A DNA stretch of 15,630 nucleotides from IMG/VR virus record IMGVR_UViG_2534681702_000002; one strand, given 5' to 3'. The notes under the pieces were generated by a model, which was not told the DNA's origin, did no database searches, and worked only from the letters and a program-made list of their open reading frames with translations. Positions 1-15,630 of this stretch are shown here, piece by piece. A program made the position numbers and the translations under genes. Origin of the DNA: a virus (Duplodnaviria; Heunggongvirae; Uroviricota; Caudoviricetes). Each line of letters starts with the position of its first letter. Positions within the stretch are counted from its first letter, which is position 1.

Positions 1-1164
1 TTACGCCTTCTTTATATCCTCCATAATTCCAGAGTGGGACATATTTGGGACATTATCACCAAAAATGTCGTCTATTTTCCTCGCATGCTCTGTCAAATGA
101 TTAGGCGCAAGGTGAGCATACCTACGAACCATTTCTATGGACTCCCATCCGCCCATTTCCTGAAGCACTGATAATGGGACGCCTGACTGAATCAGCCAGC
201 TTGCCCAGGTGTGTCTGAGGTCATGGAAACGGAAATCTTCAATTCCTGCACGACGACAAGCTGATAGCCATGATGTCTTGCTGTCGATGCGCATCTTCCT
301 GACCGCAGGCGTTGATGTTCCATCTGCTCGCTTAGCCGCCTTGGTATGTACAAACACCCATTTGTGATGCTTGCCTATTTGATCACGCAACACTTTACAG
401 GCGGTATCGTTCAGCGCCACACCAATGGCGCGGTTTGATTTGCTCTCTTCTGGATTCACCCAGGCAACTCGTCGCTGCATGTCGATTTGTTGCCATTCCA
501 GATTTATGATGTTCGACTTTCTCAGACCAGTTGCCAGCGCAAACTTGACGACAGATTTCAGTGGTTCGGGGCACTCATCAATAAGGCGTTTTGCTTCCTC
601 CTTTTCCAGCCATCTGACTCGCTTGTTTCTGACCGCTGGTATCTTGATGACAGGCGCTTTTTCCAGCCACTTCCAGTCGCGTTCTGCAGCACGGAGAATG
701 GCCTTTATCATGGCAAGATGCTTTGCCTTTGTCTGAGTTGATACTGGCTTTGGTTCATAAACAGGCGGTTCTTTACCTTTCCTGATGGCGGCCTGAACTT
801 TCTGTTTCCATATTTCTTTCGTCTTTCTGTTATGCATTCTGCTTACAGCAGAGTAAATCTTTGCCTCCGAGATATCTTTAAGCCTTATACCCTCAAAATG
901 TTCAAGCCAGAACTCAATCCGGCTTTTATCTGAATCGAGAGATTTTTTATCAGCTTTTTCCTCAAGCCATCTTAGGCAGGCCTCTTCAAAAGTGACATCA
1001 GGTAAATCCCCTAGCTTTTCTACTCGCCAGAGTTCTGCTTTTCGCTTGTCGTGCAACTCCTGAGCTTGCCGCTTGTCCTTTGTGCCAAGAGATTCCTTAA
1101 TTCGTTTCCCGCCCGGGAGCGAATACGAGGCATACCATATTTCATTTCTGCGGAAGAGTGACAT
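1..1164 (-). CDS. intD: Phage tyrosine integrase (387 aa), DLP12 IntD-like
   Basis: Full-length minus-strand ORF with ATG at 1164..1162 and GAGGAAAG Shine-Dalgarno upstream. C-terminal region carries the tyrosine-recombinase catalytic motifs (HDLRHT...RRY). The sequence matches my recollection of E. coli K-12 IntD. Confidence 0.88.
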
Positions 1165-1391
1165 TTTCTTTCCTCTGTTATGCCATCACCCGCGCTCACC
1201 TGGACAGTATGCAGCGGAGACTGAAGCGCCGCAATGCAGGCTTGCCGTGTTGTGAGGTAAGGAGATTTTGGCTTGGTTGGATCTTTACGTGTTGCCTGTA
1301 GGCGGCCTGTTCGTATCCAGTTGGTGGCGGTTGGTCTGGATATCTTAAGAAACTGACAGGCCTCATCGAGTGTGAGGCTGTATGATTCCAT
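1020..1391 (-). CDS. xis: Excisionase-like DNA-binding protein (AlpA/Xis family), 123 aa from the ATG at 1391
   Basis: Minus-strand ORF directly upstream of int. ATG at 1391..1389 preceded by GAGGTAACC. N-terminus [31 protein letters not shown] is a typical Xis/AlpA helix-turn-helix. The 3' end overlaps int by 145 nt, which is unusually long for xis, so the C-terminal part may not be native. Confidence 0.6.
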
Positions 1392-1641
1392 GGTTACCTC
1401 TGCTTTTTGAACGCATGTCACGTAACTTCTTAATGTGTTCTGCCGTTTCGATCTCTTCTGCTATCCGATCTGCATCAGCTTTATTCACAGGTTCAAAGTC
1501 ATGATTAAAGCGGAACATGCTGGCGATACATGTTCTGCCTTTTCGGATGTAGTGAACTTTGTTGTGGGTAGAACGCAGGATTTTGCAGGGAGTGCCGTGG
1601 TGGTCGACGTACCAGGTGTTAGGCAAAATGATTCTGAACAT
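1363..1641 (-). CDS. Hypothetical small phage protein (92 aa)
   Basis: Minus-strand ORF with ATG at 1641..1639 and a GAGGTG Shine-Dalgarno 7 nt upstream. Its last ~9 codons overlap the xis start. No recognisable motif. Confidence 0.4.
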   Translation of the reverse strand: MFRIILPNTWYVDHHGTPCKILRSTHNKVHYIRKGRTCIASMFRFNHDFEPVNKADADRIAEEIETAEHIKKLRDMRSKSRGNHGIIQPHTR

Positions 1642-1654
1642 TTTTACACCTCAG

Positions 1655-1714
1655 TTGGAAGGTATGGCGAAAACACAGGTTATGTGGCTGAAAGAGGGGA
1701 TTATTAAGGCGTGA
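1655..1714 (+). pseudogene. 3' remnant (~19 codons) of the gene normally upstream of rusA (ybcO-like), lacking a start codon
   Basis: The frame ending at TGA 1712..1714, overlapping the rusA GTG, translates ...[19 protein letters not shown]. This resembles the C-terminus of the small protein I recall preceding rusA in K-12 (ybcO). The similarity is lost upstream of about 1655. Confidence 0.3.
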
Positions 1715-2073
1715 ATACCTACAGCATCACATTACCCTGGCCTCCGAGCAATAATCGCTATTACCGCCATAATCGCGGGCGCACGCACGTCAGCGCAGAG
1801 GGGCAGGCATACCGCGATAACGTCGCCAGAATCATTAAAAACGCAATGCTGGATATCGGCCTGGCTATCCCTGTGAAAATCCGCATTGAGTGCCACATGC
1901 CGGATCGCCGTCGCCGTGACCTGGATAATCTGCAAAAAGCCGCTTTTGACGCACTCACTAAAGCAGGTTTCTGGCTGGATGATGCTCAGGTCGTTGATTA
2001 CCGCGTTGTGAAGATGCCTGTTACCAAAGGTGGGAGGCTGGAACTGACCATCACCGAAATGGGGAATGAATGA
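1711..2073 (+). CDS. rusA: Holliday-junction resolvase RusA (120 aa), GTG start
   Basis: ORF translation [37 protein letters not shown]... matches recalled RusA over its full length. GTG start at 1711 with AGAGGGG upstream. Confidence 0.92.
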
Positions 2074-2210
2074 TGTTTGAGTTTAATATGGCAGAACTTC
2101 TTCGCCACCGCTGGATGCGCCTGCGCTTATATCGTTTCCCCAGTTCTGTTTTGACCGATTACCGAATACTGAGGAATTACGCCAAAACCCTGACAGGAGC
2201 AGGAGTATGA
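2070..2210 (+). CDS. ylcG: Small protein YlcG-like (46 aa)
   Basis: Not in the ORF track because it is under 60 aa. ATGATG at 2070 overlaps the rusA stop. Translation [46 protein letters not shown] matches recalled YlcG in sequence and in position between rusA and Q. Confidence 0.6.
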
Positions 2211-2295
2211 AGTCAGAGATAACAATCAACTAATACTGTTTTATTGATTTTTGCTTGTAATTGGCGTTCTGGTCTGATTTTTGTGGAGTAAGTTG

Positions 2296-2679
2296 ATGCG
2301 TGATATTCAGATGGTTCTTGAGCGTTGGGGAGCGTGGGCGGCTAATAATCATGAAGATGTGACCTGGTCGTCCATTGCCGCCGGTTTTAAGGGATTAATT
2401 ACTTCAAAAGTAAAATCTCGCCCGCAATGTTGTGACGATGACGCGATGATCATTTGCGGGTGCATGGCCCGTCTGAAAAAGAACAACAGCGATTTGCACG
2501 ATTTATTAGTAGATTATTATGTAGTCGGTATGACATTCATGTCACTGGCAGGTAAGCATTGCTGCTCTGATGGTTATATCGGGAAAAGGTTACAGAAGGC
2601 TGAGGGCATAATTGAAGGGATGTTAATGGCATTAGATATCCGGTTAGAGATGGATATCGTTGTTAATAACTCTAATTAA
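2296..2679 (+). CDS. quuD: Late-gene antiterminator Q (127 aa), phage 82/21-type
   Basis: ATG at 2296 with GGAG upstream (the track ORF begins earlier at a TTG). Cysteine-rich region ([24 protein letters not shown]) typical of Q-family proteins. Lies between rusA/ylcG and the lysis genes as in lambdoid phages. Confidence 0.8.
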
Positions 2680-2695
2680 TATGCCAATTGTTTAC

Positions 2696-2731
2696 TAAAA
2701 ATTATTAAAAATGGGGCGTTGAGACGCCCCC
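2696..2731 (-). terminator. Putative rho-independent terminator for minus-strand (nmpC) transcripts
   Basis: Perfect inverted repeat GGGGCG-ttgaga-CGCCCC at 2713..2730, followed on the minus strand by AUUUUUAAUAAUUUUU. Confidence 0.5.
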
Positions 2732-2820
2732 AAAAATAAAGGGTAATATATAACAGAAGGTTTATATAGTTAGAAGCAAGGTTGTGCTTCTAAAGGAAGT
2801 GGCTTGAGGGAGCCACTTAT

Positions 2821-2858
2821 ATGTTGGGGAGGCAAAGCCTCCCGCAACATATCTTTTT
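2821..2858 (+). terminator. Putative rho-independent terminator downstream of Q (tR'-like)
   Basis: Inverted repeat ATGTTGGGGAGGC-aaa-GCCTCCCGCAACAT at 2821..2850, followed by a TCTTTTT tract on the plus strand. Two further short hairpins lie at 2771..2792 and 2797..2820. Confidence 0.5.
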
Positions 2859-2868
2859 CGTAATCAGA

Positions 2869-3951
2869 TTAGAACTGATACACCAGACCTACAGCGACGA
2901 TGTCGTCGGTATCAATACCAGCTGTTTTGGTAAACTTACTATCGTCAATTAAGTTGATTTTGTAATCAACAAAAGTGGACATGTTTTTATTAAAGTAGTA
3001 AGTAGCACCGACATCGACATACTTGACTAAGTCTCGGTCACCATGAACACCAAGGTCTTTACCTTTTGACTGAAGGTAAGCAACAGATGGTCGCAGACCG
3101 AAGTCAAACTGATATTGTGCTACTGCTTCAAAGTTTTGTGCTTTGTTTGCAATATGGTTATTACCAAAAACGGTCATATTCTGAGTTTCAGAATATGTGG
3201 TAGCCAGATAGATATTGTTCGCATCATATTTCAGGCCTGCAGCCCATACTTCCGCATTTTTGCCGGAGGCATTGAATTTGCTCTTACCATAGGCGACCTG
3301 ACCGTCAGTGCGATCTGATTTAGCATAGGTTGCACCCACGCCGAATCCTTCATACTCATAAGTAGTGGAGAAACCGAAACCATCACCATTGGCTTCAGTT
3401 ACGTCAGTGCGGTCATTTTTACCCTGATACTGAGCAGCAAAGTTCAGGCCATCGACCAGACCAAAGAAGTCGTTGTTACGATAGGTTGCAACACCAGTGG
3501 TGCGACCAGTCATGAACACATCTGTTTGGGTCCAGGTATCGCCACCGAATTCTGGCAGAACGTCAGTCCACGCACCGATGTCGTATGCTACACCGTAGTT
3601 ACGGCCGTAATCGATTGAGCCGTAGTCACCGAATTTCAGGCCTGCAAATGCAAGACGGGTTTTGTCTTTGGAGGAACCTTGAGATTCAGCGCGGTTGCCT
3701 TTGAATTCATATTCCCACTGACCGAAACCAGTCAGTTGATCGTTGATTTGGGTTTCACCTTTGAAGCCAAGACGGGCATAAGTAGTATCACCATCATCTG
3801 CATCGTTAGAGGAAAAGTAGTGCTTGGCATTAACTTTCCCGTACAGATCCAGCTTGTTACTGTCTTTATTATAAATTTCAGCTGCCTGAGCAGACATCGT
3901 CATCAGTACTGATGCAGCTACAGCAGAAATTGCCACTGTTAATTTTTTCAT
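2869..3951 (-). CDS. nmpC: Outer-membrane porin, OmpC/Lc family (NmpC-like), 360 aa, apparently intact
   Basis: Signal peptide [23 protein letters not shown] followed by [16 protein letters not shown] and a C-terminal ...AVGLVYQF beta-barrel terminus. This is the classic general-porin signature and matches recalled NmpC/Lc. Confidence 0.85.
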
Positions 3952-4539
3952 CGTGAGCCCTTTTTTTTGAACTATTATTAAAAAATGATGTCACTGCGCG
4001 ATAAATATTCATCTAATCAATGTGATTATTTCAAGATGTAAGTTTTAGTTTCTCATTTAATTTGTGAAGTAGATCTCTATTTTTATCTGAACTTTTTCTA
4101 TCGAAACCTATTTATGGCTCTTATTTGAACAAAAATAAACCTATTAGCTAATTTATATTAATGGCTGTTATTTATGGGGGGGCTATAATTCGGTGGTTTA
4201 ATTTAAATCAACTAAAAATAACGCCGGAAATTATTTATTGGTTATTTGTTGAGGTTTTCTTATATATTTGTGGTGGTGTTTTGAACACTCGGTAGCATTC
4301 TCATAAATATCATTCAGTGGTTTACGTACGTAAAAAATTGGTTATGCTGTTAAGAGTGGTTACTTCGTCACACAGCTTAAACCCGCCGTCGAGCTGGTTT
4401 TTCCATTTTTTGAGTCTCGATATTAGCTGATAACTCAATACCTGAGTTATTCACTGACTCCGAGTCTGTTACGTTTCTGCTTTTTTGCGATACGTTGTAT
4501 TCCCTCAATTTACACCCGCTTTGTCTGCGAGGTGGGGTT

Positions 4540-4755
4540 ATGAAATCCATGGATAAGTTAACAACGGGTGTCGCCTATGGCACCTCAGCAGGTAGTGCCG
4601 GTTACTGGTTTTTACAGCTGCTCGATAAAGTCACGCCCTCACAGTGGGCAGCAATAGGTGTGCTGGGTAGCCTGGTATTTGGCCTGCTGACGTACCTGAC
4701 AAACCTTTATTTCAAGATTAAAGAAGATAAGCGCAAGGCTGCGAGAGGTGAATAA
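4540..4755 (+). CDS. essD: Class II holin (pinholin), S21-like, 71 aa
   Basis: [71 protein letters not shown] matches recalled phage 21 S / EssD. Real start is the ATG at 4540, inside the longer track ORF. Confidence 0.85.
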
Positions 4756-5252
4756 TGCCTCCATAATTACGAAAAGCCGTTGCTGCTGCTATTGGTGGCG
4801 GAGCAATTGCTATAGCATCAGTGTTAATCACTGGCCCAAGTGGTAACGATGGTCTGGAAGGTGTCAGCTACATACCATACAAAGATATTGTTGGTGTATG
4901 GACTGTATGTCACGGGCATACAGGAAAAGACATCATGCTCGGTAAAACGTATACCAAAGCAGAATGCAAAGCCCTCCTGAATAAAGACCTTGCCACGGTC
5001 GCCAGACAAATTAACCCGTACATAAAAGTTGATATACCGGAAACAACGCGCGGCGCTCTTTACTCGTTCGTTTACAACGTGGGCGCTGGCAATTTCAGAA
5101 CATCGACGCTTCTTCGCAAAATAAACCAGGGCGATATCAAAGGCGCATGTGATCAGCTACGTCGCTGGACATATGCTGGCGGTAAGCAATGGAAAGGTCT
5201 CATGACTCGTCGTGAGATTGAGCGTGAAATCTGTTTGTGGGGTCAGCAATGA
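4755..5252 (+). pseudogene. rrrD: SAR-endolysin (R21/RrrD-type lysozyme) with an in-frame TAA at codon 4; only a GTG at 4821 could restart, giving a 143-aa product without the N-terminal SAR domain
   Basis: The ATG at 4755..4757 overlaps the holin stop (TAATG coupling) and is followed by CCT CCA TAA. The same frame continues as [32 protein letters not shown]... (SAR hydrophobic segment) into the lysozyme domain. Recalled RrrD starts [12 protein letters not shown]..., so codon 4 TCA has become TAA. Confidence 0.6.
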
Positions 5253-5710
5253 ACAGAGTAACCGCGATTATCTCCGCTCTGGTTATCTGCATCATCGTCT
5301 GCCTGTCATGGGCTGTTAATCATTACCGTGATAACGCCATTACCTACAAAGCCCAGCGCGACAAAAATGCCAGAGAACTGAAGCTGGCGAACGCGGCAAT
5401 TACTGACATGCAGATGCGCCAGCGTGATGTTGCTGCACTGGATGAAAAATACACGAAGGAGTTAGCTAATGCGAAAGCTGAAAATGATGCTCTGCGTGAT
5501 GATGTTGCCGCTGGTCGTCGTCGGTTGCACATCAAAGCAGTCTGTCAGTCAGTGCGTGAAGCCACCACCGCCTCCGGCGTGGATAATGCAGCCTCCCCCC
5601 GACTGGCAGACACCGCTGAACGGGATTATTTCACCCTCAGAGAGAGGCTGATCACTATGCAAAAACAACTGGAAGGAACCCAGAAGTATATTAATGAGCA
5701 GTGCAGATAG
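5249..5710 (+). CDS. rzpD: Spanin inner-membrane subunit Rz (153 aa)
   Basis: ATG at 5249 overlaps the rrrD stop. N-terminal transmembrane segment followed by coiled-coil sequence. Matches recalled RzpD. Confidence 0.85.
5469..5651 (+). CDS. rzoD: Spanin outer-membrane lipoprotein Rz1 (60 aa), embedded in rz in the +1 frame
   Basis: Lipoprotein signal with lipobox LVVVGC, followed by a proline-rich mature region ([15 protein letters not shown]). Entirely nested within rzpD. Confidence 0.8.
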
Positions 5711-5741
5711 AGCTGCCCATATCGATGGGCAACTCATGCAA

Positions 5742-6035
5742 TTATTGTGAGCAATACACACGCGCTTCCAGCGGAGTATAAATGCCTAAAGTAATAAAAC
5801 CGAGCAATCCATTTACGAATGTTTGCTGGGTTTCTGTTTTAACAACATTTTCTGCGCCGCCACAAATTTTGGCTGCATCAACAGTTTTCTCCTGTCCAAT
5901 TCCCGAAACGAAGAAGTGATGGGTGATGGTTTCCTTTGGTGTTACTGCTGTCGGTTTGTTTCCAACAGTAAACGTCTGTTGAGCACATCCTGTAATAAGC
6001 ATTGCCAGAGCGGCAGAAAACAACATTTTTTTCAT
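5742..6035 (-). CDS. borD: Bor lipoprotein (serum-resistance family), 97 aa
   Basis: Real start is MKKMLFSAALAMLITGC..., inside the longer track ORF. Lipobox LITGC. Matches recalled lambda Bor / BorD. Confidence 0.85.
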   Translation of the reverse strand: MKKMLFSAALAMLITGCAQQTFTVGNKPTAVTPKETITHHFFVSGIGQEKTVDAAKICGGAENVVKTETQQTFVNGLLGFITLGIYTPLEARVYCSQ

Positions 6036-6394
6036 CTTATTATCCTGCATTGTTAAAAACGGCAGAATCCTATGTGACAACAATTAAACGATAGTTAAAT
6101 GGATTGATGAAAATTAAAACTATATAGGTGGATGCTCAGCCTATTGGAGGAGGGGGGCACTCAGAATCCTGTGGAATGAAATAAACCGCTCTTTCTGTCC
6201 ATTACCCTTTTAGCTGCGCTGTATCGTCGCCGTATTCCCGCATTAACCATGACCGTAGCCCGACGGGGAATTCCTTCTGCGTGAGTGTGCGGGAATAATC
6301 AAAAACGATGCACACCGGGTTTTACTGTGCTGACAGACGCAGGGTTACCCTCATAGTCGCTTTTCCGGTGCGATGGTGGAAGAAACCGGGATGT

Positions 6395-6589
6395 TTATTC
6401 ATCATCACTCTGGATTGATGTATATGCTCTCTTTTCTGACGTTAGTCTCCGACGGCAGGCTTCAATGACCCAGGCTGAGAAATTCCCAGACCCTTTTTGC
6501 TCAAGAGCGATGTTAATTTGTTCAATCATTTGGTTAGGAAAGCGGATGTTGCGGGTTGTTGTTCTGCGGGTTCTGTTCTTCGTTGACAT
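6395..6589 (-). CDS. ylcI: Small basic protein (64 aa), YlcI-like (DUF3950-type); possible ribbon-helix-helix DNA binder
   Basis: Arginine-rich N-terminus MSTKNRTRRTTTRNIRFPNQMIEQINIALEQKGSGNFSAWVIEACRRRL. Sits immediately upstream of cos/nohD, where I recall ylcI in K-12. The assignment is from memory. Confidence 0.45.
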   Translation of the reverse strand: MSTKNRTRRTTTRNIRFPNQMIEQINIALEQKGSGNFSAWVIEACRRRLTSEKRAYTSIQSDDE

Positions 6590-6749
6590 GAGGTTGCCCC
6601 GTATTCAGTGTCGCTGATTTGTATTGTCTGAAGTTGTTTTTACGTTAAGTTGATGCAGATCAATTAATACGATACCTGCGTCATAATTGATTATTTGACG
6701 TGGTTTGATGGCGTAGATGCACGTTGTGACATGTAGATGATAATTATTA

Positions 6750-6977
6750 TCATTTTGCGGGTCCTTTCCGGCGATCCGACAGGTTACGGGGCGGCGACCT
6801 CGCGGGTTTTCGCTATTTATGAAAATTTTCCGGTTTAAGGCATTTCCGTTCTTCTTCGTCGTAACTTAATGTTTTTATTTAAAATACCCCCTGAAAAGAA
6901 AGGAAACGACAGGTGCTGAAAACGAGCTTTTGGGCCTCTGTCGTTTCCTTTCTCTGTTTTTGGCCGTGGAATGAACA
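6750..6977. other. Lambda-type cos site (cosQ-cosN-cosB) with lambda right-end-like flank
   Basis: GGGCGGCGACCT, the lambda 12-nt cohesive-end sequence, lies at 6789..6800. It is preceded by ...CCGACAGGTTACG (lambda right terminus) and followed by CGCGGGTTTTCGCTATTTATGAAAATTTTCCGGTTTAAGG... (lambda left-end cosB region), running up to the Nu1 start. Recognition is against the lambda sequence as I remember it. Confidence 0.8.
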
Positions 6978-7523
6978 ATGGAAGTCAACAAAAAGCAGCT
7001 GGCTGACATTTTCGGTGCGAGTATCCGTACCATTCAGAACTGGCAGGAACAGGGAATGCCCGTTCTGCGAGGCGGTGGCAAGGGTAATGAGGTGCTTTAT
7101 GACTCTGCCGCCGTTATAAGATGGTATGCCGAAAGGGATGCTGAAATTGAGAACGAAAAGCTGCGCCGGGAAGTTGAAGAACTGCGGCAGGCCAGCGAGA
7201 CAGATCTCCAGCCAGGGACTATTGAGTACGAACGCCATCGACTTACGCGTGCGCAGGCCGACGCACAGGAGCTGAAAAATGCCAGAGACTCCGCTGAAGT
7301 GGTGGAAACCGCATTCTGTACTTTCGTGCTGTCGCGGATCGCAGGTGAAATTGCCAGTATTCTCGACGGGATCCCCCTGTCGGTGCAGCGGCGTTTTCCG
7401 GAACTGGAAAACCGACATGTTGATTTCCTGAAACGGGATATCATCAAAGCCATGAACAAAGCAGCCGCGCTGGATGAACTGATACCGGGGTTGCTGAGTG
7501 AATATATCGAACAGTCAGGTTAA
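6978..7523 (+). CDS. nohD: Terminase small subunit Nu1 (181 aa)
   Basis: MEVNKKQLADIFGASIRTIQNWQEQGMPVLRGGGKGNEVLYDSAAVIRWYAERD... is near-identical to recalled lambda Nu1 across its length. Confidence 0.92.
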   Translation: MEVNKKQLADIFGASIRTIQNWQEQGMPVLRGGGKGNEVLYDSAAVIRWYAERDAEIENEKLRREVEELRQASETDLQPGTIEYERHRLTRAQADAQELKNARDSAEVVETAFCTFVLSRIAGEIASILDGIPLSVQRRFPELENRHVDFLKRDIIKAMNKAAALDELIPGLLSEYIEQSG

Positions 7524-7713
7524 CAGGCTGCGGCATTTTGTCCGCGCCGGGCTTCGCTCACTGTTCAGGCCGGAGCCACAGACCGCCGTTGAATGGGCGG
7601 ATGCTAATTACTATCTCCCGAAAGAATCCGCATACCAGGAAGGGCGCTGGGAAACACTGCCCTTTCAGCGGGCCATCATGAATGCGATGGGCAGCGACTA
7701 TAACTGTTATTAA
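7498..7713 (+). pseudogene. Terminase large subunit (gpA) N-terminal fragment, about 66 native codons then divergence and a stop
   Basis: MNISNSQVNRLRHFVRAGLRSLFRPEPQTAVEWADANYYLPKESAYQEGRWETLPFQRAIMNAMGSDY matches the recalled lambda gpA N-terminus. Downstream of about 7700 the sequence is unrelated (NCY*). The start overlaps the Nu1 end as in lambda. Confidence 0.85.
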
Positions 7714-8626
7714 TGAAAATCCGACAGCACAAGGATATCAGGCAATTGCTGTAAACACGAATGATGCTTACACCTGCCCGGCAGGTTCTTATACGACGAT
7801 ATCGTGTCTGACGAAAAGTGATAATTCCCGGTGTCGTGCAAGGTTCGGAAAAATGTCTGATAATGGTGCGTTTGTTTTTCATTCAGATGCAGTTCTGGAT
7901 CCTGTTACGGGAAATGTTGTTCATGGAAATAATGTGACGGTGACGGCAGAAAGAGTCGGTGAATGGTGGTTGTTTACCGCCACTCTTTTTGCAGATGCGG
8001 AAATGATAATCAGCTCAAGATTTGAAATCCTGGCGATGCCTGGAATCAGTATTATCCCCAATGGCTCTACGTTAGATATTGCGATGCCTCAGGCGGAGAT
8101 TGGGTCGTACAGGACGTCATTTATCATTACTGAAGGGGCTCCTGGCACTCGCTCCAGCGACATGGTGACAATACCTGTAAGAAACAATATTCACCGATTA
8201 CCATTCAGTGCTCTTGTTGAAGTTAATAAAAACTGGGATATCCCTCCCAGCAAATCACCATTAATCTTTAATGTTAAAGATTATCAGGAAAATGGTCTGT
8301 TCACGCATGGATTCCGTGGTAATAATTTCTCTGATGCCGGTTCTCCTTTTATTTCTATGGGAGGGTGTAATAAATATGTGGCAACAACCCAGAGGAAAAT
8401 CATTTCAGGCTTCCGTTGTGGCGCTGATGGAGATGTTCAGGCCGTATGTAATGGTGAATTATCTGTTGCGGCAAAAACAACATGGACTTCAATTGTTCCA
8501 CGGGCAGTATTGCGAATTGGAGGGCAGGGCACTAATGGGGAGTATCATCTTTTTGGTCATATCCGTAATCTGCGTATCTGGCATAAAGAATTAACTGATG
8601 CGCAAATGGGGGAGAGTATTAAATGA
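7682..8626 (+). CDS. Chimeric ORF (314 aa): C-terminal fragment of a phage fibre / receptor-binding-type protein with a ConA/LamG-like C-terminus; its first 7 codons are terminase-A sequence read out of frame
   Basis: C-terminal ...NGEYHLFGHIRNLRIWHKELTDAQMGESIK resembles the end of LamG/concanavalin-like lectin domains. The ATG at 7682 has no convincing Shine-Dalgarno and sits inside the gpA remnant. Domain call is pattern recognition only. Confidence 0.4.
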   Translation: MRWAATITVINENPTAQGYQAIAVNTNDAYTCPAGSYTTISCLTKSDNSRCRARFGKMSDNGAFVFHSDAVLDPVTGNVVHGNNVTVTAERVGEWWLFTATLFADAEMIISSRFEILAMPGISIIPNGSTLDIAMPQAEIGSYRTSFIITEGAPGTRSSDMVTIPVRNNIHRLPFSALVEVNKNWDIPPSKSPLIFNVKDYQENGLFTHGFRGNNFSDAGSPFISMGGCNKYVATTQRKIISGFRCGADGDVQAVCNGELSVAAKTTWTSIVPRAVLRIGGQGTNGEYHLFGHIRNLRIWHKELTDAQMGESIK

Positions 8627-8904
8627 AAGATTTAACACTCAAATTTGCAGACAGGGCCGACTTTTCGGCCTTTATGGAGAGTATTGGCTATTATGATGAC
8701 GAGTCGATGCAGGATGATATTCTTATTGACGTGATAGGTAACGTGTACAAAGAAACCGGAGAACTGACTGAAGATGGCGAACCGGTATGTGTTAAGGAAG
8801 ACGGATATTTTGTAAACGTGCGCATCATTAATGATGTAAAAAAATCGTCAATATTCGATAAATACGCGGTTGTTGTTGAGCATCAACTTCGTGGCTGGAT
8901 GTGA
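8623..8904 (+). CDS. Hypothetical acidic protein (93 aa)
   Basis: ATG overlaps the stop of the preceding ORF (AAATGA). No recognisable motif. Separated from the next ORF, in the same frame, by one TGA plus 9 nt. Confidence 0.45.
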   Translation: MKDLTLKFADRADFSAFMESIGYYDDESMQDDILIDVIGNVYKETGELTEDGEPVCVKEDGYFVNVRIINDVKKSSIFDKYAVVVEHQLRGWM

Positions 8905-8913
8905 GGGAGACAA

Positions 8914-9618
8914 ATGGCTACATCGACAGTAATTCCAGGAGATATCACCACGCTAAAGGGAGATGTCAGTAAAACTAAGGAAGATATTTCCTCAATTAAC
9001 GGAAAAGTATCAACGCTTCAGACTGATATGACCAGTGCAAAGCAGGATATCAGCACCAGATACACAAAAACTGAAGTTGATAATAAGCTGAAAAACAAAC
9101 TGGAAGTGAACGATCTGGAAAGCGGTCGTTATGGTGGAGATTTTTACCCGTTGACTGGCCGTGAAGCGTTTTATATGTGGGGATTGGGCACGACTACAGC
9201 GGCGGCAAACCTTTATCTTAATCCTGACCCTGCAATTTCGTCTGTACTGCGGTCAACATCGTCTATTCGCTATAAACATTCAGTAGAGACGATAGATTCA
9301 GAGCACGCCGATCTCATTTTCAGGATGCGCCCTGTGTGGTACAGGTCGCAATACGAAAATGACAGGCGTGACTGGGGATTCTACGGATTGATTGCCGAGG
9401 AAGTAGGAGAAATTGCCCCTCAGTTTGTACACTGGCGACCAGCTAACGAAGATGATGCTCCTGAAGCTATTTCCAGCAATGGCCTTGTTGCCGAAGGTGT
9501 AATGTACGAACGTCTGGTTGTTCCACTGATTCACCATATCCAGAAGCTGACTGAAAGAGTTGATGAACTTGAGTCAGAATTAAAGTTGTTATCCGTTTCC
9601 CGAAGCGATATCGGATAA
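8914..9618 (+). CDS. Tail-fibre-like protein (234 aa): N-terminal coiled coil plus C-terminal intramolecular-chaperone (peptidase S74-type) domain
   Basis: GAGGGAG Shine-Dalgarno before the ATG. C-terminal segment ...RMRPVWYRSQ...GFYGLIAEEVGEIAPQFVHW...GVMYERLVVPLIHHIQKLTERVDELESELK fits the conserved pattern of fibre/tailspike auto-cleaving chaperone domains. N-terminal 70 residues are heptad-like (KGDVSKTKEDISSINGKVSTLQTDMTSAKQDIS). Confidence 0.6.
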   Translation: MATSTVIPGDITTLKGDVSKTKEDISSINGKVSTLQTDMTSAKQDISTRYTKTEVDNKLKNKLEVNDLESGRYGGDFYPLTGREAFYMWGLGTTTAAANLYLNPDPAISSVLRSTSSIRYKHSVETIDSEHADLIFRMRPVWYRSQYENDRRDWGFYGLIAEEVGEIAPQFVHWRPANEDDAPEAISSNGLVAEGVMYERLVVPLIHHIQKLTERVDELESELKLLSVSRSDIG

Positions 9619-9628
9619 AGGAGGAGTA

Positions 9629-9922
9629 ATGGATATAACACCTTTCCTTCATGCGCTTTGTGCTGTGGCTGCGCAGCTACTGATTGGTCTTTTTACCGGG
9701 AACTGGGCTTACGGGGCGATAGCCGGTTGTACGTTCTTCATTGCGCGTGAACACACCCAGGCAGAATATCGCTGGATCGAAATGTTCGGGCATGGCAAGC
9801 GAATGAATATGCCGTGGTGGGGCGGTTTTGATACACGTGCATGGGATGTGGCAAGCCTGATGGATTTTGCTGTGCCGGTGGTGGCGTGTCTGCTGGTCTG
9901 GCTGTTGGTTAATCGTGGGTGA
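9629..9922 (+). CDS. Small membrane protein (97 aa) with two predicted transmembrane helices
   Basis: Strong AGGAGG Shine-Dalgarno 6 nt before the ATG. Hydrophobic stretches at about residues 8-32 and 77-94, with a Trp/Arg-rich loop between them. No recognisable family. Confidence 0.55.
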   Translation: MDITPFLHALCAVAAQLLIGLFTGNWAYGAIAGCTFFIAREHTQAEYRWIEMFGHGKRMNMPWWGGFDTRAWDVASLMDFAVPVVACLLVWLLVNRG

Positions 9923-9932
9923 AAAAAGGTGA

Positions 9933-10052
9933 GCTGTATATGCAACGGAGGAAGAAAACTCGTTGCTGGAAGCCTGGAAAAAGTATCGGGTGCTGCTAAA
10001 CCGTGTGGACACTTCCGTAGCACCAGATATCGAGTGGCTTATTCAACCATAA
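9933..10052 (+). pseudogene. tfaX: 3' remnant of a tail-fibre-assembly (Tfa) gene, about 39 codons, no start codon
   Basis: Open frame translates ...[36 protein letters not shown], matching the recalled C-terminus of lambda-type Tfa proteins. Position directly upstream of appY matches K-12 tfaX. Confidence 0.55.
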
Positions 10053-10596
10053 TAAACAGTATGTATATCATAGGTTATTAATTGTGAGTTTTTTCGGTGT
10101 GTTATTTGTTTGTTTGATGTTATGCTTTTGCGCCCCAAAAGGTTGTTTAGATGTATTTTATCAATTGATTTTCAATGTCGTTTAATAAAGAAAAATTAAG
10201 CAAGCTGGATGTTGGTTTTTTGTTAATTGAATGGTTCTAATAATGTTTTTTTACTGTTGTTGAATGTGACTTGATAAGAAATGCAAGTAAAAATGATACT
10301 CTTTTTATTTTAAATTCAAACGGTTGACATATATATAGCAAGAGGTTTCAGGTGCGTTGTAGTGAGTTTATGTTAATAAAAAGTATAGTAAGCGTTGAAA
10401 AATGTAACTTTGAAATACGTTAGAATAAAAACAATATACATATAATAATTTAATCTTAAATGAAATTTATTAAAATTTGCAAACTATAATTTTGTGTATA
10501 AAAATATAAATGCACATCATCCTGATTATGATTGTGTATTTAATTGGTTGTTATTTGACTGCTATCAACTTGTTTTAATTTTATGATAGGTGCAAG

Positions 10597-11339
10597 ATGG
10601 ATTATGTTTGCTCCGTAGTTTTCATCTGTCAATCATTTGATTTAATTATAAACAGGAGAGTTATCTCGTTCAAAAAAAATTCATTGTTTATTGTAAGCGA
10701 CAAAATTAGAAGGGAGTTACCAGTATGCCCCTCTAAACTAAGAATTGTTGATATAGATAAGAAAACATGTTTATCCTTTTTTATCGACGTGAATAATGAG
10801 CTGCCTGGCAAATTTACTCTTGATAAGAATGGCTATATTGCTGAAGAGGAACCTCCATTATCGCTTGTTTTTTCTCTGTTTGAAGGGATTAAAATAGCAG
10901 ACTCACACTCCCTTTGGTTAAAAGAAAGACTATGTATATCCTTACTTGCCATGTTCAAAAAACGCGAAAGTGTAAATTCATTTATACTAACAAATATAAA
11001 TACATTCACCTGTAAAATTACTGGAATAATCAGTTTTAATATTGAGCGGCAATGGCATTTAAAAGATATTGCGGAATTGATTTATACGAGTGAAAGTTTA
11101 ATAAAAAAAGATTAAGGGATGAAGGAACGTCATTTACTGAAATATTGAGAGATACTAGGATGAGGTATGCAAAAAAACTCATAACTTCAAACTCTTATTC
11201 TATCAATGTCGTAGCCCAGAAATGTGGCTATAACAGTACTTCATATTTCATATGTGCATTTAAAGATTATTATGGTGTCACGCCATCTCATTATTTTGAG
11301 AAAATAATCGGCGTCACAGATGGAATAAACAGGTAATGA
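10597..11339 (+). pseudogene. appY: AraC-family regulator AppY, disrupted by a 1-bp frameshift at an A7 run (11103..11109) and by an IS1 insertion 12 nt before its native stop
   Basis: The 172-aa ORF (10597..11115) and the 63-aa ORF (11145..11336) are in different frames, yet together form a continuous AraC-type C-terminal helix-turn-helix domain (...[19 protein letters not shown] / [25 protein letters not shown]...[18 protein letters not shown]). The native last codons (AAA ACA ATT GAC TGA) lie at 12882..12896, beyond the IS1 pair. Confidence 0.85.
11323..11331. repeat. 9-bp target-site duplication GAATAAACA, left copy, of the outer IS1
   Basis: Identical 9-mer immediately flanks both ends of the outer IS1 (11323..11331 and 12876..12884). 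Confidence 0.85.
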
Positions 11340-11378
11340 CTCCAACTTATTGATAGTGTTTTAGGTAGTGACTCCAAC

Positions 11379-11882
11379 TTACTGATAGTGTTTTATGTTC
11401 AGATAATGCCCGATGACCTTGTCATGCAGCTCCACCGATTTTGAGAACGACAGTGACTTCCGTCCCAGCCTTGCCAGATGTTGTCTCAGATTCAGATTAT
11501 GTCGCTCAATGCGCTGAGTGTAACGCTTGCTGATAACGTGCAGCTTTCCCTTCAGGCGTGATTCATACAGCGGCCAGCCATCCGTCATCCATACCACGAC
11601 CTCAAAGGCCGACAGCAGGCTCAGAAGACGCGCCAGTGTGGCCAGAGTGCGTTCACCGAAAACGTGCGCCACAACTGTCCTCCGTATCCTGTCATACGCG
11701 TAAAACAGCCAGCGCTGACGTGATTTAGCACCGACGTAGCCCCACTGTTCGTCCATTTCCGCGCAGACAATCACATCACTGCCCGGTTGTATGCGCGAGG
11801 TTACCGACTGCGGCCTGAGTTTTTTAAGTGACGTAAAACCGTGTTGAGGCCAACGCCCATAATGCGGGCAGTTGCCCGGCAT
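11379..11882 (-). CDS. insB: IS1 InsB reading frame (167 aa), expressed as the InsAB' transposase by -1 frameshifting; inner copy
   Basis: Translation matches IS1 InsB. Overlaps insA in the -1 frame. Identical at protein level to the copy at 14634..15137. Confidence 0.9.
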
Positions 11883-12076
11883 CCAACGCCATTCATGGCC
11901 ATATCAATGATTTTCTGGTGCGTACCGGGTTGAGAAGCGGTGTAAGTGAACTGCAGTTGCCATGTTTTACGGCAGTGAGAGCAGAGATAGCGCTGATGTC
12001 CGGCGGTGCTTTTGCCGTTACGCACCACCCCGTCAGTAGCTGAACAGGAGGGACAGCTGATAGAAACAGAAGCCAC
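11801..12076 (-). CDS. insA: IS1 InsA (91 aa), inner copy
   Basis: [43 protein letters not shown]... is the zinc-finger plus HTH InsA. The A6C frameshift motif (TTAAAAAAC) lies at its 3' end. Confidence 0.9.
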
Positions 12077-12104
12077 TGGAGCACCTCAAAAACACCATCA
12101 TACA

Positions 12105-12626
12105 CTAAATCAGTAAGTTGGCAGCATCACCGTGTTTTATGTTCAGATAATGCCCGATGACTTTGTCATGCAGCTCCACCGATTTTGAGAACGACAGCGA
12201 CTTCCGTCCCAGCCGTGCCAGGTGCTGCCTCAGATTCAGGTTATGCCGCTCAATTCGCTGCGTATATCGCTTGCTGATTGCGTGCAGCTTTCCCTTCAGG
12301 CGGGATTCATACAGCGGCCAGCCATCCGTCATCCATATCACCACGTCAAAGGGTGACAGCAGGCTCATAAGACGCCCCAGCGTCGCCATAGTGCGTTCAC
12401 CGAATACGTGCGCAACAACCGTCTTCCGGAGCCTGTCATACGCGTAAAACAGCCAGCGCTGGCGCGATTTAGCCCCGACGTATCCCCACTGTTCGTCCAT
12501 TTCCGCGCAGACGATGACGTCACTGCCCGGCTGTATGCGCGAGGTTACCGACTGCGGCCTGAGTTTTTTAAATGGCGGAAAATCGTGTTGAGGCCAACGC
12601 CCATAATGCGGGCGGTTGCCCGGCAT
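12105..12626 (-). CDS. insB: IS1 InsB reading frame, outer copy; C-terminus altered (…[11 protein letters not shown]) because the ORF runs into the inserted inner IS1
   Basis: About 90% identical to the inner InsB. The last two native codons (YQ) are replaced by read-through into the inner IS1 end, extending the ORF to 173 aa. Confidence 0.8.
12132..12139. repeat. 8-bp target-site duplication GTGTTTTA, right copy, of the inner IS1 (left copy at 11356..11363)
   Basis: Direct 8-bp repeat, itself part of the outer IS1 sequence, flanking the inner 768-bp element. Confidence 0.85.
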
Positions 12627-12820
12627 CCAACGCCATTCATGGCCATATCAATGATTTTCTGGTGCGTACCGGGTTGAGAAGCGGTGTAAGTGAACTGCAG
12701 TTGCCATGTTTTACGGCAGTGAGAGCAGAGATAGCGCTGATGTCCGGCAGTGCTTTTGCCGTTACGCACCACCCCGTCAGTAGCTGAACAGGAGGGACAG
12801 CTGATAGAAACAGAAGCCAC
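12545..12820 (-). CDS. insA: IS1 InsA (91 aa), outer copy
   Basis: InsA-like. Differs from the inner copy at two residues (…GLNTIFRHL versus …GLNTVLRHL). Confidence 0.9.
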
Positions 12821-12875
12821 TGGAGCACCTCAAAAACACCATCATACACTAAATCAGTAAGTTGGCAGCATCACC

Positions 12876-12884
12876 GAATAAACA
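12876..12884. repeat. 9-bp target-site duplication GAATAAACA, right copy, of the outer IS1; also restores the native appY 3' end
   Basis: Same 9-mer as 11323..11331. Reading across it gives ...GGA ATA AAC AAA ACA ATT GAC TGA (G I N K T I D *). Confidence 0.85.
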
Positions 12885-13103
12885 AAACAATTGACTGATA
12901 ATGTTTATTACAAGTTGTCTACATGTTAATTATAATATTATACAGCGTTTTTTTGATGTGATATTCTGGAACCATTAATTTGTAATTGGGTTGCTGTCGC
13001 CTATTTTATACATGCTATAATTGATGGTTTTCTATGTGATTTAGTTAATAACCTTCTGGGTTTATTTTAAGGGTTAATTGTTACATTGAAATGGCTAGTT
13101 ATT

Positions 13104-13128
13104 CCCCGGGGCGATTTTCACCTCGGGG
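13104..13128 (-). terminator. Possible weak terminator hairpin downstream of ompT
   Basis: CCCCGGGG-cgattttca-CCTCGGGG stem with one G-U pair, about 19 nt beyond the ompT stop. No convincing U-tract on the minus strand. Confidence 0.25.
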
Positions 13129-13146
13129 AAATTTTAGTTGGCGTTC

Positions 13147-14100
13147 TTAAAATGTGTACTTAAGACCAGCAGTAGTGATGAAGTTATAGTTTTCTATACC
13201 TGCTCCATTTTTGCTGTAGTCTGAAGTGTTATTATTGTGATCATAAAGTGAAGTATTACCTTTTTTATTCGTAACCCGATTCCATGCGCCTTCAACATAA
13301 ACTTTTGCGTTAGGTGTGACGTAATAACCTGCATTGACTGCAACAGAATAGTAATTTTGGTCTTTGACCTTACTGCGATAAGTGATTCTTTTTCCCGGGT
13401 CATAGTGTTCATCGTTATCAGATGATTCCACCCAGCCGCTGTATTTAAATGTGCCACCGAGTTCAAAATCTTCATAACGATAACTTCCAGTCAAGCCAAT
13501 GTAGGGCATTTTAAAACGTTGTTTGTAGCCGATTGCTCTTTCTCCATTCGGGAAGGAGCCGATATCATCTCTGAATCCCTCCTCAGAACTGTAGATATAG
13601 GAACCACCTCTGGCTGTAAAGCTATAACGGCTTTCCTGATATCCGGCCATGAGTCCCAGGCGGTAATTGGGTTCGTTGAGGAGCCAACCTTTGATATTCA
13701 GATCAAATTCGTTGGCATAATTGAGTTGTGTATCAGGGTGTCTACTTTCATCCGTCCAGGTTCCGGGGTTACTGGAATCCATCCAGTCCTGATCGACCAT
13801 ATTGCCACCTCGGCTGCCGAGAGTTGTCCAGCCAGCAGCCCCGATAGATATCTGGGGCATCAAATCCCAATTAATTGCACCTTTAATAATTGCAGCGTTA
13901 TTGAATTTCCAATCGAGTTGACTGACTTTTCGGCCTCCTTCTTCGGCTAGATAAACACGCTCTTTTGTTTTTCCGCTCAGAGTTCCAAAACTAATGTCCG
14001 CATTTATGTTGTCAGGAGTAAACGATATAGTCTCGGTAGAAGCAAAAGAGCTGATCGCAATAGGGGTTGTCAGGACTATTCCCAGAAGTTTCGCCCGCAT
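13147..14100 (-). CDS. ompT: Outer-membrane protease OmpT (omptin, protease VII), 317 aa
   Basis: MRAKLLGIVLTTPIAISSFASTETISFTPDNINADISFGTLSGKTKERVYLAEEGGRKVSQLDWKFNNAAIIKGAINWDL... matches recalled OmpT over the full length. Ends with the beta-barrel terminus ...AGLKYTF. Confidence 0.95.
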   Translation of the reverse strand: MRAKLLGIVLTTPIAISSFASTETISFTPDNINADISFGTLSGKTKERVYLAEEGGRKVSQLDWKFNNAAIIKGAINWDLMPQISIGAAGWTTLGSRGGNMVDQDWMDSSNPGTWTDESRHPDTQLNYANEFDLNIKGWLLNEPNYRLGLMAGYQESRYSFTARGGSYIYSSEEGFRDDIGSFPNGERAIGYKQRFKMPYIGLTGSYRYEDFELGGTFKYSGWVESSDNDEHYDPGKRITYRSKVKDQNYYSVAVNAGYYVTPNAKVYVEGAWNRVTNKKGNTSLYDHNNNTSDYSKNGAGIENYNFITTAGLKYTF

Positions 14101-14439
14101 AAAAGTTCTCCATTCAATCGTTTTAATGATTGAATATGTATTTTTTATATCTAACTTAATGAGTCAATTACATATTGCTCCACTGTTTATATTTTGTTTA
14201 GTATTGAATGATTATCACAATGCGCTATCTGTTTTTGGTTTAATTATCTGTTATTGTTTCATATTGCGGTTTTACTGTGTGGTTTTTTTATGCTTTTGTG
14301 GTGCTTTTATCTATTTAAGTGCCATGCCTTTAGAGGCATATAAGCGAAAATAGCATGAGGTTTATCCTCAATTACTATGTTTTTGGTGATGCTGCCAACT
14401 TACTGATTTAGTGTATGATGGTGTTTTTGAGGTGCTCCA

Positions 14440-14715
14440 GTGGCTTCTGTTTCTATCAGCTGTCCCTCCTGTTCAGCTACTGACGGGGTGGTGCGTAACG
14501 GCAAAAGCACCGCCGGACATCAGCGCTATCTCTGCTCTCACTGCCGTAAAACATGGCAACTGCAGTTCACTTACACCGCTTCTCAACCCGGTACGCACCA
14601 GAAAATCATTGATATGGCCATGAATGGCGTTGGATGCCGGGCAACTGCCCGCATTATGGGCGTTGGCCTCAACACGGTTTTACGTCACTTAAAAAACTCA
14701 GGCCGCAGTCGGTAA
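14440..14715 (+). CDS. insA: IS1 InsA (91 aa), third copy
   Basis: Protein identical to InsA of the inner IS1. Confidence 0.9.
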
Positions 14716-15137
14716 CCTCGCGCATACAACCGGGCAGTGATGTGATTGTCTGCGCGGAAATGGACGAACAGTGGGGCTACGTCGGTGCTAAATCACGTCA
14801 GCGCTGGCTGTTTTACGCGTATGACAGGATACGGAGGACAGTTGTGGCGCACGTTTTCGGTGAACGCACTCTGGCCACACTGGCGCGTCTTCTGAGCCTG
14901 CTGTCGGCCTTTGAGGTCGTGGTATGGATGACGGATGGCTGGCCGCTGTATGAATCACGCCTGAAGGGAAAGCTGCACGTTATCAGCAAGCGTTACACTC
15001 AGCGCATTGAGCGACATAATCTGAATCTGAGACAACATCTGGCAAGGCTGGGACGGAAGTCACTGTCGTTCTCAAAATCGGTGGAGCTGCATGACAAGGT
15101 CATCGGGCATTATCTGAACATAAAACACTATCAGTAA
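14634..15137 (+). CDS. insB: IS1 InsB reading frame (167 aa), third copy
   Basis: Protein identical to InsB of the inner IS1. A6C frameshift motif TTAAAAAACTC at about 14690. Confidence 0.9.
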
Positions 15138-15154
15138 GTTGGAGTCACTACCCG

Positions 15155-15630
15155 TTAGCGGATATTTGTTTGCCTCCTTTTTTTTACCCAGCATACCCCA
15201 TCCCAACAATTTGAATTAAATGTCGTAAAATTGATAACTTCTTTACCTTTTGAAAAATATGTTATTGGGCAAAACTCATCTCCACTTAATGGTTTAAAGC
15301 TGGTTATTATGTCACAATTTAATTGTTGTGATAGTGATTGAGCGATGAAATCAGTTAGAGATGGAAGATACTTGCTTTCAATCGATGTTGTTGATGTGCC
15401 GAAATCAACTTCATAAGAAAAATCAATCTTCGCTAGTAATTCAATATATTCTGCATCTTTGTCAATAAAAGATGTGTCATAAGTAATGTTTTTTTATACT
15501 CATTTACATCAAAGTAGTCATATTTTAATATCGAAAAGTCAATGTCTAGAGCATTTACAAACTTATAAATACTATCGGTTAGTTTACTTTTATCTTTATA
15601 CTCTATGAGTATACTTGATTTGGTGATCAT
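15155..15630 (-). pseudogene. Low-GC gene of unknown function, frameshifted at an A7 run (plus-strand T7 at 15489..15495); stop codon 2 bp from the IS1 end
   Basis: The minus-strand ATG sits exactly at the window edge, so the true N-terminus may lie beyond it. Frame a reads MITKSS...DYFDVNEYKK and stops at 15433. The adjacent frame continues NITYDTSFIDKDAEYIELLAKIDFSYEVDFG...CWVKKRRQTNIR* for about 113 codons with no Met, so it is a continuation rather than a separate gene. Identity unknown. Confidence 0.4.

Follow-up and report, generated by a model that had tools for sequence, protein, structure and literature searches.

Results

IS1 copies on both sides of ompT

In the window (the whole 15,630-nucleotide stretch of DNA analyzed here), ompT lies between IS1 copies of opposite orientation, and the copy on its right, IS1-C, carries no target-site duplication, both as the earlier note had recognized. 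Two questions are raised by this arrangement: how a complete IS1 came to stand without a duplication, and whether the IS1-ompT-IS1 segment is a mobile or invertible unit. The coordinates of all features are collected in Table 1. The IS1 copies around ompT are confirmed as real and match each other far above chance: the arms 11364-12131 and 14385-15152 are 100% complementary over 768 nt, and complementarity is 94% between 12132-12878 and 14382-15128. Each of the three elements, IS1-A, IS1-C, and IS1-B as rebuilt below, is 768 bp long, as expected of an IS1 (~768 bp). Their terminal inverted repeats are imperfect and span ~23 bp (IRL, GGTGATGCTGCCAACTTACTGAT; IRR, GGTAGTGACTCCAACTTACTGAT in IS1-A and IS1-C and GGTAATGACTCCAACTTATTGAT in IS1-B), and all three copies have the A6C motif of the programmed -1 frameshift, TTAAAAAAC, at IS1 position 305. 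ORFs in the InsA and InsB frames are present in the IS1 copies of the window, and the corresponding genes of relatives are annotated as "IS1 family transposase, programmed frameshift."

Table 1. Features of the ompT region in the window
Feature	Position	Strand	Description
appY	10597-11336	plus	AraC-family gene; so annotated in 99-3165, FORC_031, and HKUOPY1
IS1-B target-site duplication, left copy	11323-11331		9 bp, GAATAAACA; same 9-mer at 12876-12884
IS1-B, IRR-end fragment	11332-11363	minus	32 nt, terminal repeat plus GTGTTTTA; cut off by IS1-A
IS1-A target-site duplication	11356-11363 and 12132-12139		8 bp, GTGTTTTA
IS1-A	11364-12131	minus	Complete 768-bp IS1, nested in IS1-B
IS1-B, main body	12132-12875	minus	IS1B-type, 744 nt
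IS1-B target-site duplication, right copy	12876-12884		9 bp, GAATAAACA
ompT	13147-14100	minus	Intact ORF, 317 codons
Native ompT upstream DNA, surviving part	14101-14384	minus	284 bp
Deletion joint	14384/14385		Direct fusion of the IRL end of IS1-C to DNA upstream of ompT
IS1-C	14385-15152	plus	Complete 768-bp IS1 without target-site duplication
IS1-C original target-site duplication (9 bp), remaining copy	15153-15161		CGTTAGCGG
Right flank	15153-15630		Unannotated DNA between Rhs-associated small ORFs and ISAs1; anchored, unchanged side of IS1-C

The two left-hand copies form a nested rather than a tandem pair, IS1-A having entered IS1-B 32 nt from the IRR end of the latter. When 11332-11363 and 12140-12875 are joined, a 768-bp IS1-B is rebuilt; in the window, the insB frame of IS1-B continues into IS1-A and extends over 173 codons, compared with the usual 167. 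The duplications made by IS1 are 8 or 9 bp long (PMC12428005), and the duplication is 9 bp for IS1-B, 8 bp for IS1-A, and, in E1433 and other sister genomes, 9 bp for IS1-C. At the empty site of IS1-B in HKUOPY1, the two flanks overlap by 9 bp (positions 14536-14544 of the HKUOPY1 locus, L001), and the main body of IS1-B has only one mismatch with the IS1 found at the same site in FORC_031. IS1-B entered the 3' end of appY separately, with its 9-bp duplication, and a copy identical to IS1-C entered IS1-B afterwards, with its 8-bp duplication; both arrivals are simple insertions. The nested IS1-A/IS1-B junction was found as a single contiguous match in no complete E. coli genome searched.

IS1-C and IS1-A are identical at 768/768 nt as well as in protein, whereas IS1-C and IS1-B share 721/768 nt and differ in their InsA and InsB products. 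The earlier note had described the right-hand IS1 as identical in protein to the inner left copy, which holds, even at the nucleotide level, for the nested IS1-A, the more distant of the two from ompT, but fails for IS1-B, the copy next to ompT.

The AraC-family gene at the left end had been read as envY, a placement in which ompT would look inverted relative to K-12; BLAST identifies this gene as appY. Its last codons are replaced by IS1-B, the end of which supplies the stop codon, and the copy in the window contains a -1 frameshift in an A8 run shortened to A7 near 11102. The orientation of ompT relative to appY is ancestral and collinear with that in FORC_031 and HKUOPY1, and the segment 12876-14384, comprising ompT and its flanks, is 100% identical to strain 99-3165. 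The native place of envY is on the other side of ompT, which puts envY among the deleted DNA described below.

A deletion joint at the IRL end of IS1-C

The region around 14385-15152 was searched again for a matching direct repeat of 8 to 9 bp, and none is present: the flanks of IS1-C read TATGTTTTT (14376-14384) and CGTTAGCGG (15153-15161). In HKUOPY1, a relative that is IS1-free, the two flanks are not contiguous but lie 8,864 bp apart, which bears out the view of the right-hand IS1 as a deletion joint. The IRL end at 14385 abuts position 13036 of L001, and L001 4172-13035 is absent from the window; the upstream DNA of ompT aligns collinearly with L001 as far as 13036 and with the FORC_031 locus (L003) down to 12506. 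Relative to FORC_031, 8,208 bp are missing at the joint. Comparison with HKUOPY1 shows that the DNA lost beside 14385 comprises envY, ybcH, nfrA, nfrB, ISAs1, and the DLP12 attR, the last of which is seen as a 47-bp copy of the tRNA-Arg end at L001 12850-12896. The joint lies 284 bp from the ompT start codon within an AT-rich run that reads, in HKUOPY1, TATGTTTTT before and TAGTACAAAAAAG after the breakpoint. IS1 prefers AT-rich targets.

The left joint occurs in 0 of 5,426 complete E. coli genomes and has no match in metagenome contigs or GTDB representative genomes in exact 30-mer searches; this endpoint, with the loss of envY-nfrB and the DLP12 attR, was found in no other genome searched. 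The opposite side of IS1-C is widely shared: its right flank (15153-15630) is 100% identical in many genomes, 12 genomes share its right junction at 100% identity, and the IS1 that FORC_031 and E1433 carry at this junction is 100% identical to IS1-C.

States of the same IS1 in sister strains

In at least 12 ETEC-like genomes, IS1-C is present as a simple insertion with the 9-bp duplication CGTTAGCGG (left junction, contiguous 100% match). The earlier statement that the right-hand IS1 did not arrive by simple insertion is therefore correct for the state in the window, which is a joint, but not for the arrival of the element. In E1433, CGTTAGCGG borders this IS1 on either side, whereas it is present once at the empty site of HKUOPY1. 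The FORC_031 IS1 and its right flank are identical to the window over 1,246/1,246 bp, and FORC_031 is 99.94 to 99.96% identical elsewhere; in this strain, the IRL end of the same IS1 adjoins a truncated ISAs1, with 656 bp lost, and this junction was found in no genome searched other than FORC_031. The deletions extending from the same IS end across relatives are accordingly 0, 656, and 8,864 bp long.

The locus has been rearranged by IS1 in other ways too. In E1433, ompT lies within a 38-kb inversion bounded by IS1, with a 9-bp target split in inverted orientation. In 99-3165, the appY/ompT site is occupied by a cleanly chimeric IS1, of which positions 1-538 are C-type and positions 573-768 are B-type. 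Descent of IS1-C from the IS1 inside envY of 99-3165 was considered and rejected; that copy is IS1B-type, ~94% identical, and located at a different position. AS19-RrmA-, which we take to be an E. coli B derivative, was considered as a parallel case of ompT loss, but its ompT-envY-nfrA region is intact, with no IS1 there, and it is uninformative. nfrB is a pseudogene in FORC_031, 99-3165, and HKUOPY1 and is annotated as intact in E1433.

Insertion followed by a probable adjacent deletion

The classical adjacent deletion by IS1 leaves the element at the joint without a target duplication. The same arrangement is found in the window, where the deletion begins precisely at one end of the IS, the element itself is kept, and no target duplication is left; a preexisting copy occupies the same position, and its right (IRR) junction is unchanged. 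IS1-C is very probably an old, ordinary insertion that later deleted the DNA beside one of its ends, in a one-sided, IS1-anchored manner. Comparison shows that an A/C-type IS1 inserted between the Rhs-associated small ORFs and ISAs1, giving the 9-bp duplication CGTTAGCGG; this clean insertion is still present in sister ETEC-like genomes. The later deletion, starting from either the intact insertion or a FORC_031-like state, would have kept IS1-C with its IRR junction and dropped one copy of the duplication plus the DNA from ISAs1 to attR. The deletion was most likely made by the transposase through intramolecular transposition. Replicative deletions by IS1 were reportedly described by Turlan and Chandler in 1995.

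Compared with known IS1 adjacent (one-ended, nested) deletions, the window shows no difference in kind. The IS stands exactly at the joint with one junction kept, the other junction is at a new AT-rich site without a target duplication, and relatives have different lengths missing from the same IS end. The window also matches the deletions of 11 to 66 kb found directly beside IS1 in clinical E. coli, which are consistent with the joining of one IS1 end to a target within its own molecule (PMC10569738), and the order of events reported for IS150 in E. coli long-term evolution lines, in which insertion was followed by adjacent deletion and then by extension of the deletion (PMC11708052).

An end product of the same sequence would be expected if a second IS1 of the same type and orientation, bringing a duplication of its own, had entered the DNA 284 bp upstream of ompT and RecA-dependent recombination with IS1-C had then removed 8.9 kb and one IS1. 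Identical IS1 copies are abundant in the lineage (at least 40 matched pieces per record in relatives), and the chimeric IS1 of 99-3165 records homologous exchange between IS1 copies at this very locus. However, an IS1 at the 14384 position was found in 0 of the 5,426 complete genomes, the nearest copies are >200 bp away in unrelated strains, and FORC_031 shows the same IS1 end losing its flank alone, with another endpoint. Such a course also needs one event more than an adjacent deletion, and we regard it as unlikely. Far less credit still is due to an assembly artifact, in which the strain has two true IS1 copies, upstream of ompT and at the Rhs/ISAs1 site, that the assembler collapsed while skipping the 8.9 kb between them. 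Since IS1-A, IS1-C, and further copies share all 768 bp, they are prone to collapse, and the joint is known from one assembly only. The window differs from relatives mostly in the length of homopolymer runs, which hints at some sequencing error and suggests an imperfect sequence. Nevertheless, an artifact would require an IS1 insertion at 14384 that is seen nowhere else, and the window passes through IS1 three times, including a nested copy, and has exact, correct duplications at two of the three, which suggests that the reads were long enough to span an IS1. A one-step inversion of ompT, by recombination or replicative intramolecular transposition between IS1-A and IS1-C, was considered and rejected, because direct duplications are still present at both left-hand copies and collinearity with FORC_031 and HKUOPY1 is preserved for ompT as well as for IS1-B.

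With adjacent deletion as the preferred reading, one IS1 copy is seen across sister strains in three states, a clean insertion, a small adjacent deletion, and a large one, and this series explains how an IS can be without a target duplication. The strain has lost envY, ybcH, and two genes for the adsorption of phage N4, nfrA and nfrB; because the DLP12 attR has been lost, the prophage remnant would no longer be able to excise. The event is ordinary, well-understood IS1 behavior and leaves the knowledge of IS1 unchanged. Its value lies in annotation and strain typing, with the joint serving as a lineage-specific marker.

The IS1-ompT-IS1 segment as a possible unit

Inverted IS1 pairs can form composite transposons, as in Tn1681, which carries the heat-stable toxin gene of ETEC. 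The earlier note had suggested such a unit around ompT, as well as inversion between the identical copies. In favor of IS1(A/B)-ompT-IS1(C) as a composite transposon or invertible cassette that moves or flips ompT, two complete, identical, inverted IS1 copies with intact terminal repeats and A6C motif surround the gene, the IRR ends on the outer sides, at 11332-11354 (or 11364-11386) and 15130-15152, are intact, and the 38-kb inversion of E1433 includes ompT. This reading is nevertheless highly improbable. The segment is not flanked by a duplication (GAATAAACA, or GTGTTTTA at the IS1-A end, on the left versus CGTTAGCGG on the right), all of its parts are in their ancestral chromosomal place and orientation, and a second context was not found in the 5,426 complete E. 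coli genomes, GTDB representatives, or metagenome contigs. No IS1-ompT-IS1 unit was found in the plasmid records searched; near-identical ompT was found only in large circular chromosome pieces, the remaining matches being diverged omptins. Inversion is possible in principle, as the E1433 rearrangement illustrates, but only the ancestral orientation of the ompT segment was seen in the one assembly.

Tn9 has direct and Tn1681 has inverted IS1 copies, and the window resembles Tn1681 in having a gene between two full IS1 copies in an ETEC-like background. Unlike both transposons, the unit lacks a surrounding target-site duplication and a second location, the cargo gene is still in its native chromosomal surroundings, the structure was assembled in place by independent events, and one flank is an IS1 within an IS1. 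Similarly, the window shares with IS-bounded inversions such as that of E1433 the identical 768-bp inverted repeats, here 2,253 bp apart, but its segment has kept the ancestral orientation, and a flipped form was not observed. Three independent IS1 events in an IS1-rich genome thus left the inverted copies around ompT as a by-product; IS1-ompT-IS1 did not arrive as one unit.

The relation to ompT lability proposed in the earlier note is weak, since ompT is intact and 284 bp of native upstream DNA are kept. It would be a long shot that ompT is a switchable or mobilizable cassette in the ETEC-like lineage, flipped by IS1-A and IS1-C or carried to plasmids by the outer IRR ends in the manner of Tn1681, and that replacement of the distal upstream DNA (>284 bp from the start codon) by IS1 may alter OmpT expression. 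OmpT activity has been linked to distal promoter differences (PMC6854850). In the ompT upstream DNA of the window, a promoter scan places a promoter-like site, by consensus match only, at 14167-14140.

Organization of the appY-ompT region

Up to appY, the window corresponds to the DLP12 prophage remnant running from intD to appY; the left-hand AraC-family gene was identified as appY by BLAST against 5,426 complete E. coli genomes. The gene envY, native to the region upstream of ompT where IS1-C now lies, is missing. Terminal repeats of the IS1 type and an A6C frameshift motif are present in all three IS1 copies. A repeat search returned two inverted pairs, one of 768 nt with 100% complementarity (11364-12131 and 14385-15152) and one with 94% complementarity (12132-12878 and 14382-15128). 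IS1-A and IS1-C are identical (768/768), IS1-B matches IS1-C at 721/768 positions, and the InsA and InsB products differ between the A/C and B sequence types. Within DLP12, the porin gene (nmpC-like; ompC in the annotation of relatives) at 2869-3951 on the minus strand is an intact 360-codon ORF; the gene is interrupted by IS1 in AS19-RrmA- and by IS5 in K-12.

Features of the appY-ompT region of the window
Feature	Position	Strand or orientation	Basis
appY	10597-11336	+	sequence reading
IS1-B end fragment, 32 nt	11332-11363 (11331-11362 in the repeat search)		repeat search and sequence reading
IS1-A	11364-12131	minus	
Rest of IS1-B	12132-12875	minus	
ompT, 317 codons	13147-14100	minus	
ompT upstream DNA, 284 bp	between ompT and IS1-C		
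IS1-C	14385-15152	plus	
Unannotated DNA, 478 bp	right of IS1-C		

IS1-C is the joint of a deletion upstream of ompT

The earlier note took the right-hand IS1 to lack a target-site duplication and to mark a deletion or other rearrangement, and both points are borne out. Its flanks, TATGTTTTT and CGTTAGCGG, do not match, and IS1-C thus has no duplication. In the IS1-free strain HKUOPY1 (L001), window positions 14384 and 15153 correspond to 13036 and 4171, and the 8,864 bp between them contain ISAs1, nfrB (a pseudogene in this strain), nfrA, ybcH, and envY, together with DLP12 attR, a 47-bp repeat of the tRNA-Arg 3' terminus (L001 12850-12896). Relative to the clean-insertion state, the loss amounts to 8,873 bp by E8 coordinates (8,864 bp plus one duplication copy). 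The deletion endpoint sits in an AT-rich run, and IS1 favours AT-rich targets. Annotation treats nfrB as a pseudogene (internal stop) in HKUOPY1, 99-3165, and FORC_031, and the N4-phage adsorption system may therefore have been defective already in the immediate ancestor of the deletion; nfrB is annotated as intact in E1433 (L004 4722-6959).

The same IS1 was found in relatives. FORC_031 (L003), which shares 99.94% identity with window 1-11366 and 99.96% with 12132-14384, carries an IS1 100% identical to IS1-C and joined to the right flank at the identical point (1,246/1,246 positions agree between window 14385-15630 and L003 4297-3052); on the side of the left terminal repeat (IRL), which in IS1-C faces ompT, it adjoins a truncated ISAs1 transposase gene, with 656 bp less than the HKUOPY1 arrangement. 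In E1433, this IS1 (L004 41610-42377) is bordered on both sides by CGTTAGCGG, of which the empty site of HKUOPY1 has one copy. Junctions were then counted wherever a genome gave one contiguous 100% match. The right junction, common to all states, was present in 12 genomes and the left junction of the clean insertion in at least 12 (E8, E54, E1316, E1433, E1535, E1620, E1648, E1654, E1739, E2386, 254D-1, and LR883050); the FORC_031-type left junction occurred in FORC_031 only, and that of the window had no match among the 5,426 complete E. coli genomes, the metagenome contigs, or the GTDB representative genomes.

Across these genomes a single IS1 copy thus appears in three states: as a clean insertion, with 656 bp lost beside it, or with 8.9 kb lost. 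The losses always lie on the IRL side and the junction at the right terminal repeat (IRR) is constant, a pattern that marks adjacent deletion mediated by an IS. Comparison among the strains demonstrates the outcome, an IRL-side deletion. As the mechanism, we infer transposase action in preference to homologous recombination between IS1-C and a second, since-lost IS1, because an IS1 at the deletion endpoint was found in none of the 5,426 complete E. coli genomes and FORC_031 has independently lost DNA from the same IS1 end. The states of IS1-C follow the same pattern as IS150 in evolving E. coli lines, where insertion was followed by adjacent deletion and then by its extension (PMC11708052). 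The window's pattern is also that of clinical E. coli isolates with 11-66 kb deletions immediately beside IS1, attributed by the authors to intramolecular ligation of one IS1 end to a target site (PMC10569738).

Assembly collapse across identical IS1 copies could also create such a joint, and the window's left joint is seen in this assembly alone, whose few differences from FORC_031, mostly homopolymer-length changes including one that frameshifts appY, indicate imperfect sequence quality; this is nevertheless unlikely, since the assembly resolves nested IS1 copies with exact duplications. The structure thus combines an ordinary adjacent deletion anchored on IS1 with two simple insertions of this element, in an ETEC-like genome rich in IS1, and is a fresh instance of a well-known kind.

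Nested IS1 insertions at the 3' end of appY

The left-hand IS1 "pair" does comprise two copies, but they are nested, with IS1-A inside IS1-B. GTGTTTTA lies on both sides of IS1-A (11356-11363 and 12132-12139) as an 8-bp duplication; removal of IS1-A and one GTGTTTTA copy restores a 768-bp IS1-B, which is flanked by GAATAAACA (11323-11331 and 12876-12884). Target duplications of IS1 are 8 or 9 bp (PMC12428005). At the empty site of HKUOPY1, the IS1-B flanks share a 9-bp overlap (L001 14536-14544), so that IS1-B is a simple insertion, as is IS1-A. Because IS1-A entered IS1-B ahead of the stop codon of its insB, the insB frame of IS1-B (12105-12626, minus) reads into IS1-A and stops six codons on, giving a product of 173 instead of 167 aa with an altered C terminus. 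In 99-3165, the equivalent site (L002 11233-12000) holds an IS1 that is flanked by the same GAATAAACA repeats and is cleanly chimeric, with A/C-type alleles at positions 1-538 and B-type alleles at 573-768. In this close relative, IS1 copies have thus left evidence of gene conversion or of a double recombination between them.

IS1-B is inserted in the last codons of appY (window 11332-11336), and in IS1-bearing strains the stop codon comes from the IS1 terminal repeat (GGTAATGA), AppY being 246 aa long versus 249 aa in HKUOPY1. A 141-bp query spanning the appY/IS1 junction was covered to 80% or more in 76 genomes, so that an IS1 here or close by seems to be widespread. The window's appY has a -1 frameshift in an A-run at ~11102-11109 (A7; A8 in 99-3165 and FORC_031), leading to a stop at 11113-11115 and loss of the C-terminal third of AppY. 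Further homopolymer-type differences from relatives occur at 10426 and at 4181-4182 (GGGGGTT to GGGGGGG), and the frameshift may be a sequencing error instead of a true pseudogene.

Mobility, inversion, and expression of ompT

The suggestion that IS1-ompT-IS1 could behave as a composite transposon is not supported: the unit has usable outer ends, but it lacks a flanking duplication and its parts are all ancestral in place. It was absent from complete E. coli genomes, metagenome contigs, and GTDB representatives, and was not seen in plasmid records with near-identical ompT, where ompT lies within large circular chromosome pieces, peccDNA113 and pF138-4 (42.7 kb, nfsB...appY-ompT-ybcH-nfrA). These two records (NZ_CP110860.1, gltIJK/IS5...DLP12-appY-ompT-envY-nfrAB-cus; NZ_OY754386.1, nfsB...IS150...appY-ompT-nfrAB-ISAs1) were deposited as circular, non-mobilizable "plasmids" and could be circles excised by IS-mediated deletions or assembly products.

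As for the lability of ompT raised in the earlier note, the gene is intact and retains an upstream promoter-like site (consensus match only). An influence of IS1 at -284 on its expression is conceivable, since in uropathogenic E. coli the expression level has been linked to sequence differences lying over 150 bp ahead of the gene (PMC6854850). The proposed inversion of ompT has left no recorded flip, because the window shows ompT in its ancestral orientation; IS1 copies at this locus do, however, rearrange DNA in other strains. One example is the 38-kb inversion of E1433 (L004 2425-41517), spanning ISAs1, nfrB, nfrA, ybcH, envY, ompT, DLP12, tRNA-Arg, and fim/sfm, on to purK-fdrA; at its edges are two IS1 copies identical to IS1-C, between which the 9-bp target CAAAAAGTG is split in inverted orientation, with allC and fdrA cut short at the other edge. 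The same strain carries three IS1 copies within 2.7 kb beside an Rhs element.
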